In this document: positions 3,580-5,176 of the stretch, piece after piece
Position numbering within the stretch: position 1 is the stretch's first letter
Layout: every line of letters starts with the position of its first letter
Source: a phage
Length of the DNA: 64,000 nucleotides
Sequence record: PX994957.1
Strand: one strand, 5' to 3'
Position numbers and translations under genes: made by a program
Notes under the pieces: generated by a model
Told to the model about the DNA's origin: nothing
What the model saw: only the letters and a program-made list of their open reading frames with translations
Databases searched by the model: none

Positions 3580-3655
3580 TGGTCGAGGCAGTAGGGATCG
3601 AACCTACGACCTAGGACTTAGAAGGTCCTTGCTCTTCCTTCTGAGCTATGCCCCG
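3580..3655 (-). tRNA. tRNA-Arg (anticodon UCU)
   Basis: hand-folded cloverleaf: acceptor CGGGGCA/TGCCTCG, anticodon loop CTTCTAA, T-loop TTCGATC, encoded CCA. Confidence 0.85.
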
Positions 3656-3659
3656 TAAT

Positions 3660-3735
3660 TGGGGTGACCGATGGGAGTCGAACCCATGACTACGAGAATC
3701 ACAATCTCGAGTTCTACCAACTGAACTACGGCCAC
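3660..3735 (-). tRNA. tRNA-His-like (anticodon GUG), no encoded G-1
   Basis: cloverleaf: acceptor GTGGCCG/CGGTCAC, discriminator C73, anticodon loop TTGTGAT, T-loop TTCGACT, CCA encoded; nucleotide -1 is U. Confidence 0.6.
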
Positions 3736-3849
3736 ATTAATACCTACTCCAACAATCAAGATGTCTTCACACGAAATTAAGAGAAGAGTGATCAGTTCAA
3801 CCCCTATAATCGCGTCAAGTAGATATTAATGTGACAGTTGTCACAAATT

Positions 3850-3924
3850 TGGCGGACGTGATAGGATTCGAACCTATAACCAATCGCTTAACAGGCGATC
3901 GCTCTGCCATTGAGCTACACATCC
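3850..3924 (-). tRNA. tRNA-Asn (anticodon GUU)
   Basis: cloverleaf: acceptor GGATGTG/CACGTCC, anticodon loop CTGTTAA, T-loop TTCGAAT, CCA encoded. Confidence 0.8.
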
Positions 3925-3928
3925 AAAT

Positions 3929-4015
3929 TGGTGGGGAGTGGTGGAGTCGAACCACCCGAGTCGCAATGACAATGAATTTACAGTCCACACCGCTACCTCT
4001 ACGGGATAACTCCCC
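3929..4015 (-). tRNA. tRNA-Tyr (anticodon GUA), long variable arm
   Basis: acceptor GGGGAGT/ACTCCCC, anticodon loop CTGTAAA, type II variable arm, T-loop TTCGACT, CCA encoded. Confidence 0.75.
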
Positions 4016-4027
4016 TAATTCATAATT

Positions 4028-4102
4028 TGGTGGCCCTGGGTGGAATTGAACCACCATCTGGCGATTATGAGTCGCTTGCTTGAACCTTCCAGCTACAGGG
4101 CC
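4028..4102 (-). tRNA. tRNA with CAU anticodon (Ile2 or Met)
   Basis: acceptor GGCCCTG/CAGGGCC, anticodon loop CTCATAA, T-loop TTCAATT; Ile vs Met cannot be decided from sequence alone. Confidence 0.7.
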
Positions 4103-4103
4103 T

Positions 4104-4179
4104 TGGTGCTGATTGACGGAATCGAACCGCCGACGTCCTCATTACAAGTGAGGTGCTCTACCTACTGAGCTAAATCAGC
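4104..4179 (-). tRNA. tRNA-Thr (anticodon UGU)
   Basis: acceptor GCTGATT/AATCAGC, anticodon loop CTTGTAA, T-loop TTCGATT, CCA encoded. Confidence 0.85.
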
Positions 4180-4185
4180 AAAAAC

Positions 4186-4275
4186 TGGCGGAGGCGATAG
4201 GATTTGAACCTATGAGTCGCCGGAGCGACTGCCGGTTTTCAAGACCGGTGCATTAAACCACTCTGCCACGCCTCC
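4186..4275 (-). tRNA. tRNA-Ser (anticodon UGA), long variable arm
   Basis: acceptor GGAGGCG/CGCCTCC, anticodon stem-loop CCGGT-CTTGAAA-ACCGG, T-loop TTCAAAT. Confidence 0.85.
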
Positions 4276-4281
4276 AAATAT

Positions 4282-4932
4282 TTATATATTGTTAATTTGA
4301 TTTAGAATTCTTTTTGCTTGAGTATGACTTACGCCAATATGCTTAGCATATTTAGATAATTCACCACGCTTAGAAAAATCATATAATTTAGAAATTTCTA
4401 TTCTTCTTTTTCTTTCATCCGCAGAAACTTTTGCTTCGTTTGCTTTTGCTATTTTACGTTTAGCTTCTTGAGAATGAGTTTTACCAGCAAATCCATTCTT
4501 CATTAATCCATTTGAAGACCATCCTTTTAATTTTCCGTTAGAATGTGCCTTTTTAACACCCAATGAAATTAATTCGCGTTGCTGATCTGTCATAGGATAA
4601 TTATTTATATGGTCCCATCCACCTTCACCTCCAAGTTTTAAATTATACACATCTGGTCTATTTAAAAACTCTTCTGTGACAATATTTTTCTCAGCTTCAA
4701 GCATAGATTCTTTATCATCAAAATACTCTAATATTTCTTTAGAAAAATTTTCTATACCATATTTATCTTGGGCTCTTTTTAATAATTTACCAGAACCCAT
4801 ATATCCATCATCTAAATTTTCGGTAGAATGCACACCAATATAAATTTTATTATTAATTTTATTTGTTATTTTATAAAGATAAAAATGCATATCAGTCCCT
4901 AATAAAGAACTGAGCGTCTCACGACGAGTCAT
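4282..4932 (-). CDS. segB: GIY-YIG homing endonuclease (SegB-like) within the tRNA cluster
   Basis: 216 aa; N-terminal GIY-YIG motifs (YLYKITNKINNKIYIGV ... YMGSG); basic C-terminal DNA-binding-like tail; true start may be internal Met at 4890. Confidence 0.8.
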   Translation of the reverse strand: MTRRETLSSLLGTDMHFYLYKITNKINNKIYIGVHSTENLDDGYMGSGKLLKRAQDKYGIENFSKEILEYFDDKESMLEAEKNIVTEEFLNRPDVYNLKLGGEGGWDHINNYPMTDQQRELISLGVKKAHSNGKLKGWSSNGLMKNGFAGKTHSQEAKRKIAKANEAKVSADERKRRIEISKLYDFSKRGELSKYAKHIGVSHTQAKRILNQINNI

Positions 4933-4936
4933 AAAT

Positions 4937-5010
4937 TGGAGCGGATAATGAGAATCGAACTCACATCATCAGATTGGAAGTCTGAGGTAATACCATTATA
5001 CGATATCCGC
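4937..5010 (-). tRNA. tRNA-Gly (anticodon UCC)
   Basis: acceptor GCGGATA/TATCCGC, anticodon loop CTTCCAA, T-loop TTCGATT, CCA encoded. Confidence 0.85.
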
Positions 5011-5015
5011 AAATT

Positions 5016-5102
5016 TGGTGCGAGAAGTGGGACTCGAACCCACAAGGAAATCATTCCGCAGCATTTTAAGTGCTGTGCCTTTACCAATTTGACCATTCTC
5101 GC
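5016..5102 (-). tRNA. tRNA-Leu (anticodon UAA), long variable arm
   Basis: acceptor GCGAGAA/TTCTCGC, anticodon loop CTTAAAA, T-loop TTCGAGT. Confidence 0.85.
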
Positions 5103-5103
5103 G

Positions 5104-5176
5104 CTGGGAATAAAGGACTCGAACCTTTGCATCTAGCAGTCAAAGTGCTATGCCTTACCAACTTGACTAATTCCCA
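5104..5176 (-). tRNA. tRNA-Gln (anticodon UUG), CCA not encoded
   Basis: acceptor TGGGAAT/ATTCCCA, anticodon loop CTTTGAC, T-loop TTCGAGT. Confidence 0.8.

Follow-up and report, generated by a model that had tools for sequence, protein, structure and literature searches.

A probable SegB-family replacement of tRNA-Pro and a predicted structured leader beside tRNA-His in the mosaic tRNA array of a T4-like phage

The tRNA region of the T-even phages, reshaped by homing endonucleases of the SegB type, is a kind of locus that is already well understood mechanistically. In T4 (NC_000866) the order is Gln-Leu-Gly-Pro-Ser-Thr-Ile-[segB]-Arg-rnaD-rnaC. T4 SegB recognizes tRNA DNA coding for the T-psi-C arm and prefers the tRNA-Asn of T2L, and its homing overwrites about 1250 base pairs (bp) that carry Met, Tyr, Asn and Arg genes and two open reading frames (ORFs); the T2L/RB1/RB3-type region was described in the same work (Brok-Volchanskaya et al., 2008; PMC2330249). 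T6 SegB likewise cuts within tRNA genes, and the co-localization of segB with tRNA genes is widespread (Chihara et al., 2026; PMC13096335). Both cleavage and preferential inheritance have been shown for the T4 and T6 enzymes (PMC2330249, PMC13096335). Here we describe the tRNA array in sequence record PX994957.1, a stretch of phage DNA of 64,000 nucleotides (nt) that was analyzed as a whole and is called the window below, with the endonuclease gene that stands in the place of tRNA-Pro and a 95-nt element upstream of tRNA-His. An initial annotation, made from the letters alone, had taken this array for a remodelled cluster peculiar to the phage.

The tRNA genes that ARAGORN predicted in the window number ten and lie on the minus strand between 3580 and 5176. 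Their order of transcription is Gln, Leu, Gly, [GIY-YIG ORF], Ser, Thr, CAU, Tyr, Asn, His, Arg, and no tRNA-Pro was found in the whole 64 kb. The initial annotation, which had folded the genes by hand, was thus right about all ten identities, their order and the missing Pro. Under the Rfam tRNA model nine of the ten scored 59–74 bits, and the class II tRNA-Tyr appeared under the tRNA-Sec model of the same clan. The first three genes are tRNA-Gln (UUG; 5103..5176; 61.3 bits, 72/73 identical to T4 tRNA-Gln), tRNA-Leu (UAA; 5016..5102; 87/87 identical to T4) and tRNA-Gly (UCC; 4937..5010; 74/74 identical to T4). Beyond the endonuclease follow tRNA-Ser (UGA; 4186..4275), identical to T4 at 87/87 aligned positions, tRNA-Thr (UGU; 4104..4179; 75/76 identical to T4), the CAU-anticodon tRNA (4028..4102; 51/74 against T4 tRNA-Ile, 98% against the T2 copy), tRNA-Tyr (GUA, class II; 3929..4015; 87/87 identical to T6 tRNA-Tyr), tRNA-Asn (GUU; 3850..3924; 98% identical to T2), tRNA-His (GUG; 3660..3735; 65.1 bits, 80.3% identical to E. 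coli hisR) and tRNA-Arg (UCU; 3580..3655), a T2-type allele that matches T2 and is 49/75 identical to the Arg of T4 and T6. The CAU tRNA is probably Ile2, which is lysidine-modified and reads AUA; its best E. coli matches are annotated as tRNA-Ile, at 81.6% over the full length in a comparison by overall identity only. Transcription of the co-oriented, closely packed genes would yield polycistronic precursors for host enzymes to mature, and beyond the array lie the stable RNAs rnaD and rnaC and then a terminator. A promoter scan for sigma-70 sites, whose scope excludes the middle and late promoters of T4, gave no signal, with 12 sites found where 10.7 were expected.

The locus and its synteny are those of the T-even tRNA region, with trna.2-4 upstream and rnaD/rnaC and e.8 downstream (blastn against T4, T2 and Pinarejo, and annotations). 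T4 carries its cluster at the same genomic position, between trna.2-4/ipI and rnaD/rnaC/e.8, and both phages have a GIY-YIG SegB catalytic domain inside the cluster, in T4 in the slot between Ile and Arg. The initial annotation had listed the eight T4 tRNAs correctly but omitted this segB. In local blastn, T4 matched the window from trna.3 to Gly (5759-4932, 94%), in the catalytic half of segB (4876-4602, 98.2%), over Ser, Thr and the start of Ile (4276-4083, 96%) and over rnaD and rnaC (3211-2869, 98%). No T4 match was obtained for the 3' half of the endonuclease gene (4601-4282) or for the rest of the CAU gene, Tyr, Asn, the leader, His, Arg and a 116-amino-acid (aa) ORF (4082-3212). Gln, Leu, Gly, Ser and Thr are about 99–100% identical to their T4 counterparts, and CAU and Arg are different alleles. 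T4 for its part has Pro, lacks Tyr, Asn, His and the 116-aa ORF, and its segB has a different C-terminal domain.

The unmatched blocks have their counterparts elsewhere among the T-even phages. Against T2 (PV958097) the CAU-Tyr-Asn block was 98% and the Arg-to-rnaC block 91% identical, and the Met(CAU)-Tyr-Asn-Arg block with its downstream ORF is 91–98% identical between the T2L/RB1/RB3 type and the window. T2 differs in keeping Pro and in lacking Thr, which is replaced by an ORF, the module of leader and His, and an intact endonuclease; the leader and tRNA-His module is common to other Tevenvirinae genera. On these alignments, the array is a mosaic of known alleles, in which Gln-Leu-Gly and Ser-Thr are common to T4, and CAU-Tyr-Asn-Arg with the 116-aa ORF is of the T2L type. 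Since this block is the T2L/RB1/RB3 allele, Tyr and Asn represent an alternative and long-known allele and not the gain that had been supposed; it is the allele that T4 segB overwrites in homing, and T4 is one variant among many. We consider it highly probable that the window comes from a Tequatrovirus (a T4/T2/T6-like coliphage), that the array is the standard tRNA gene region of that group and, jointly, that it is such a mosaic in which a SegB-family gene has replaced Pro.

The same arrangement is already known and annotated in GenBank genomes. A 2-kb query over the region matched 1053 phage records, 54 of which covered at least 80% of it, and among the matches listed these were almost all Tequatrovirus. 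AR1 (NC_027983), RB18 (NC_054906) and Shigella phage ESH35 (ON528745) carry annotations of these ten tRNAs in an identical order, and of the endonuclease between Gly and Ser. The arrangement is thus not peculiar to this phage, and the initial annotation had itself named such reference genomes as evidence against its reading. Their regions are 96.5–99.2% identical to the window (ESH35, 99.2%) and show point differences only, for example G4 versus A4 in the tRNA-His of ESH35, and the anticodon-stem alleles of tRNA-Gln. The two alleles of tRNA-Gln have several differences in the anticodon stem and none in the rest of the molecule: ATAGCAC...GCTAG in the window, T4 and T2, and ACTGGAT...CCAGG in AR1, RB18, PhiZZ30 and Pinarejo. 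Other relatives differ in gene content. The T6 cluster, Gln-Leu-Gly-Thr-Met-Tyr-[segB]-Arg, lacks Pro and Ser, has no Asn or His annotated, and carries a segB with the T4-type C-terminus directly after a Tyr gene identical to that of the window. The clusters of RB51 and PhiZZ30 have no His, and CM8 has an HNH endonuclease in the place of Gln and lacks Tyr, Asn and His. Pinarejo, with the order Gln-Leu-Gly-Pro-Ser-Thr-Met-Tyr-Asn-[leader]-His-Arg, has 11 tRNAs and no endonuclease.

Pinarejo served to delimit the endonuclease cassette. The window is collinear with it (93–95%) up to 4932 and again from 4276, and the 80 bp between these points in Pinarejo (a 5-nt spacer, the 74-nt tRNA-Pro and 1 nt) correspond to a cassette of 655 bp in the window (4277..4931, minus strand). 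The initial annotation had placed the endonuclease where Pro would be expected, and the comparison with Pinarejo confirmed this as a replacement at the level of single bases. A search for a tRNA-Pro remnant in the cassette was negative: the local alignment scored 16, and shuffled sequences averaged 15.8. The GCTCAGTT that Pro and the cassette have in common is a chance match. The distance from Gly to Ser was 661 nt in 5/5 carriers measured and 86 nt in 3/3 Pro genomes measured, consistent with one insertion event that then spread. The cassette is thus polymorphic for presence and absence, Pinarejo, T2 and T4 having Pro instead, with conserved flanks.

The cassette encodes a SegB-like GIY-YIG homing endonuclease of 202 aa (4282..4890, minus strand), which matches phrog_314, homing endonuclease (E=1.5e-55), and contains a GIY-YIG domain (Pfam PF01541, 26.8 bits against a cut-off of 22.6, E=6e-6). 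The likely start is the ATG at 4890, which aligns with Met1 of T4 and T6 SegB and has an AGGGA Shine-Dalgarno sequence upstream; the annotations of RB51 and CM8 also give an ORF of 609 nt (202 aa), and an alternative in-frame ATG at 4932 would give 216 aa. Residues 1–103 are identical to T6 SegB at 97/103 and to T4 SegB at 94/103 positions. The KIYIGVH catalytic motif is kept, including the residues altered in the catalytically dead T6 SegB (Y17/G19 equivalents). Mutation of residues of this motif kills T6 SegB (PMC13096335). The C-terminal 99 aa, in contrast, share only 21/99 identities with T4 and T6 SegB and gave no BLASTP alignment; this half carries NUMOD3 (22.8 bits against a cut-off of 20.4) and a weak, putative helix-turn-helix (HTH) below the Pfam cut-off. 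This half recurs with at least 95% identity in 56 phage records and, among the matches listed, with 41–71% identity in other T4-like phages; T4 did not appear among the 40 matches listed, beyond which lay 86 further records. The annotation of RB18 remarks of its own gene, 'segB ... C-terminus divergent'. As judged from these alignments and domain matches, the endonuclease is a SegB variant with a nearly identical catalytic half, whose DNA-binding half has been swapped for a NUMOD3 and putative HTH module. The N-terminal GIY-YIG, NUMOD3 and putative C-terminal HTH are likewise found in modular endonucleases like I-TevI, but unlike the intron-encoded enzymes of that type this one is free-standing. 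In T2, the ORF between tRNA-Ser and tRNA-Met, in the place of Thr, is 41.5% identical to the C-terminal half; it is probably what remains of a different endonuclease that took the place of a tRNA gene. A hairpin at 4892..4913 (minus strand; terminator-like scan and sequence reading) covers the Shine-Dalgarno sequence just upstream of the ATG at 4890 and, by analogy with other T4 endonuclease genes, may restrict translation of the endonuclease.

GIY-YIG homing enzymes are modular, and the C-terminal domain sets the choice of target. With a different binding module and a position in the Pro slot, cutting in or beside tRNA-Pro is therefore the most economical prediction. In a mixed infection the variant enzyme would cut an endonuclease-free allele, most likely in or beside tRNA-Pro, and repair would copy the cassette in and delete the target; such copying would account both for the loss of Pro and for the immunity of the phage to its own enzyme. 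We infer this homing in or beside tRNA-Pro from the published work on SegB, whose recognition sequences are GGTTCRANTCC and RAWTSGAAC (PMC2330249, PMC13096335). The core motif GGTTCRANTCC occurred 10 times in the window against 0.12 expected. As to susceptibility to T4 SegB itself, the tRNA-Asn, of T2 type, has kept this motif as found in the site that T4 SegB prefers (GGTTCGAATCC ... CCAA). A single core motif (GGTTCAAATCC) was found outside the tRNA and rnaC region, at 29578-29588 on the minus strand, inside a 610-aa ORF on the plus strand (28660-30492). One stray motif lies within the range of the shuffles (up to 2), and by analogy it could be an off-target SegB site like those mapped genome-wide in T6.

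Codon usage was compared between 52 long ORFs of the window and an E. coli sample. Most tRNAs of the array fit codon supply, the ratio of phage to host being 1.5x for CAA (Gln), 2.6x for TTA (Leu), 4.7x for GGA (Gly), 3.1x for TCA (Ser), 2.8x for ACA (Thr), 4.2x for ATA (Ile) and 3.7x for AGA (Arg), and the tRNAs for A-ending codons would supplement host decoding. The comparison had been suggested by the initial annotation for Tyr, Asn and His; demand was indeed raised for Tyr (1.6x in total) and Asn (1.5x), but not for His (0.56x). The raised Tyr and Asn values agree with the view that the phage underwent a lineage-specific adaptive remodelling, acquiring Tyr, Asn and His and discarding Pro so as to suit its codon usage. 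The same alleles, however, occur in T2, T6, RB51, AR1, RB18, Pinarejo and many others, and this distribution largely refutes the view. Moreover, His codons are rarer in the phage, the lost tRNA is the one for a codon that is enriched (CCA, 2.3x), and a mobile gene replaces Pro with identical junctions in all five carriers measured. We regard adaptive remodelling as most improbable.

Some of these and other results also weigh against the reading that we prefer, an array of standard alleles altered by homing. The E. coli codon reference comes from one 49-kb region in which ribosomal protein genes are abundant, and codon usage accounts neither for the presence of His nor for the loss of Pro. The target of the C-terminal variant is deduced only from position and analogy. 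Finally, no co-conversion tract is visible, the flanking Leu, Gly and Ser being essentially invariant between cassette and Pro genomes; this comparison used unaligned flanks, is confounded by indels further out and, with invariant genes, is uninformative.

A different explanation for Tyr, Asn and His, three of the four tRNAs of the GUN/queuosine family, is that they are kept mainly as spares or decoys against host defences that cleave tRNAs, and not for codon supply. The window tRNA-Tyr is the very tRNA of T6 that, when overexpressed, rescues infection from Septu, which T4, without tRNA-Tyr, cannot escape (PMC13096335), and the tRNA-Tyr of T5 defeats retron-Eco7 (PMC11555353). Tyr, Asn and His are also three of the four substrates (Tyr, His, Asn and Asp tRNAs) of colicin E5 (PMC1635277), and a role of phage tRNAs in counteracting host enzymes that deplete tRNAs, colicin E5 included, has been proposed by Van den Berg et al. 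(PMC10264068). The presence of His, unexplained by codon demand, points the same way. On the other side, the experimental support concerns Tyr only, and the anticodon loop of the phage tRNA-His (TTGTGAT) is the same as that of the host, which offers no obvious resistance to an anticodon nuclease. We hold such a role for all three to be quite possible, if short of probable; tRNA-Tyr at least would be a spare against tRNA-Tyr-cleaving defences in addition to any part in codon supply.

The tRNA-His itself is unusual at its 5' end. The gene has T directly 5' of G+1, discriminator C73 and an encoded CCA, and E. coli hisR has G at -1; the GUG anticodon, C73 and the missing G-1 had been read correctly in the initial annotation, which went on to suggest that the tRNA may be non-functional or charged unusually. 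In bacteria, histidine identity rests on G-1 and C73, and G-1 is thought to place the critical 5' phosphate (PMC9976931). Lacking G-1, a major identity element for the histidyl-tRNA synthetase (HisRS), the phage tRNA-His may be matured or charged in an unusual way. In the Alphaproteobacteria and in C. elegans mitochondria tRNA-His likewise has no G at -1 (PMC9976931). There, however, either the synthetase or the set of tRNA identity elements has changed by co-evolution, whereas the phage tRNA keeps C73 and presumably must use the ordinary enterobacterial HisRS that relies on G-1.

Several features speak for decay of the gene. U at -1 cannot pair with C73, E. coli HisRS uses the missing G-1 as a major identity element, the demand for His codons is low, and the gene has disappeared from some relatives, RB51 and PhiZZ30 having none and SEA1 only a residual 'GTGGT'. 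Conservation contradicts this reading. The tRNA scores well on the Rfam model (65 bits), about 197 phage records match the stretch of spacer and His with an identity of 95% or higher, and Karamvirus, Jiaodavirus and Gelderlandvirus match it at 83–92%. In the alignment of these three genera with Tequatrovirus, T at -1, GUG, C73 and CCA were invariant, while the T-stem (ATGGG/CCCAT, GCGGA/TCCGC, GACGG/CCGTC), the acceptor stem (G4-U69, A4-U69, G4-C69) and the anticodon stem (A31-U39, G31-C39) varied in a compensatory manner. Compensatory stem changes together with invariant GUG, C73 and CCA mean that the gene is not decaying, and judged by this pattern tRNA-His is a selected, folding tRNA and no pseudogene; a non-functional or decaying tRNA is very unlikely. 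Among 109 tRNA-His genes with the same D-arm (IMG/VR matches and GenBank loci), 81 had G-1/C73/CCA and about 23 had T at -1, the latter mostly in T4-like genomes of about 170 kb, plus two jumbo-phage contigs and two uncharacterized others. At least two phage tRNA arrays carry G-1, and T at -1 is hence specific to a clade and not a general phage trait. On phage tRNA-His without G-1 nothing relevant was found in the open-access literature, which does not prove novelty.

Upstream of this tRNA, the 114-nt spacer between Asn and His contains a predicted structured leader of 95 nt (3736..3830, minus strand; fold, covariation and covariance model), whose last base is U-1 of tRNA-His. It folds into a 14-bp closing helix (5' ATTAATATCTACTT / GGAGTAGGTATTAAT 3'), a long variable hairpin and a short 4-bp hairpin, with a minimum free energy of -26 kcal/mol in the window and -24 to -32 kcal/mol across homologs. 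In 13 distinct homologs 90.7% of the cells were paired, against 28–47% when the partners were slid. The closing helix was paired in 99.5% and had four pairs changed on both sides, and in the short hairpin 4/4 pairs varied on both sides. Overall, 10 pairs showed changes on both sides, and 0/500 shuffles reached the observed covariation. In the precursor fold the closing helix can extend by 5 bp, an upstream GUCAC pairing with G1-C5 of tRNA-His. We also observed a perfect palindrome, GTGAC-AACT-GTCAC (GTGACAACTGTCAC), at 3831-3844 (minus strand), just upstream of the leader. Its arms are the acceptor strands of tRNA-His, 5' GTGAC (as in ESH35/Melville) and 3' GTCAC, like a collapsed His minihelix, and the GUCAC arm is the one that can alternatively pair with G1-C5 of the tRNA-His proper.

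Such a structure might be a feature of the DNA, namely the terminal inverted repeats or the recombination scar of an inserted His module, and not a functional RNA. The leader does travel with tRNA-His as a unit of insertion and deletion, its arms are AT-rich inverted repeats, and the adjacent palindrome resembles a collapsed His acceptor stem. Against this, 24/182 cells of the closing helix are G-U wobbles, which pair only on the tRNA-sense strand and are A-C mismatches on the other, and the covariance model gave the minus (sense) strand 100.8 bits and the plus (antisense) strand 17.4. The wobbles and the gap in score argue for a structure at the level of RNA on the tRNA strand, and the internal 4-bp hairpin covaries at every pair. 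A purely DNA-level feature thus appears rather unlikely.

The covariance model found the leader as a single copy in the window. Elsewhere it was seen only beside tRNA-His genes with T at -1 or, in SEA1, beside the stump of the deleted His, and the scan found none beside G-1 tRNA-His genes. The order Gln-[leader]-His-Ser occurred in five T4-like contigs from outside Tequatrovirus and in annotated Karamvirus, Jiaodavirus and Gelderlandvirus loci, and a second IMG/VR scan, anchored on the junction of leader and His, added one locus. Rfam gave no match at E<=1 overlapping 3736-3849, and no papers on the leader were found in the open-access literature. A hammerhead was rejected by eye, the strands of the three-way junction being too short for a hammerhead core. 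We tentatively propose that in the Tevenvirinae this leader is inherited together with the U(-1)/C73 tRNA-His as a single RNA module, undescribed as far as we found; it may be the only part of the locus that is undescribed. Candidate roles of the leader are the control of tRNA-His 5' processing, a cassette for processing by RNase III or RNase P, and a stable small RNA like rnaC and rnaD.

Downstream of the array, the 116-aa ORF (3211..3561, minus strand; phrog_3355, E=6.7e-52, no known function) lies between tRNA-Arg and rnaD and is present in AR1, RB18, RB51, T2 and Pinarejo and absent from T4. It is followed on the same strand by homologs of rnaD (species 2 stable RNA; 3097..3211, with 115 positions identical to T4 rnaD) and rnaC (species 1 stable RNA; 2952..3090, 137/139 identical to T4 rnaC). 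The rnaC homolog contains a perfect tRNA T-arm motif (GGTTCGAATCC; 2964-2974, minus strand), which is also the SegB core recognition element and suggests a tRNA-like module in rnaC. Downstream of rnaC, a scan found a terminator-like hairpin with a T-run (2878..2901, minus strand), likely the end of the operon. This hairpin belongs to one copy of a direct repeat of 36 nt, 92% identical between its copies at 2310-2345 and 2869-2904, each a terminator-like hairpin. The repeat, which is also remarked in the annotation of RB51, flanks a 157-aa ORF (2350-2823; phrog_2280, no known function). As the ORF is absent from T4, it has the appearance of an insert between two copies of a terminator.

For the biology of these phages, the cluster illustrates in textbook fashion how homing endonucleases rearrange the tRNA complement of a phage. 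The phage is predicted to exchange markers of the tRNA region with T4-type and Pinarejo-type phages in mixed infections, and to resist tRNA-Tyr-cleaving defences as T6 does. Its tRNA-His provides a natural test of how bacterial translation handles a tRNA-His without an encoded G-1. If the proposed module is real, the tRNA-His supplied by the phage would work, or fail by design, without the encoded G-1 that the host HisRS normally requires, and the leader, if real as an RNA, may extend the short list of stable T-even RNAs by a new structured one.

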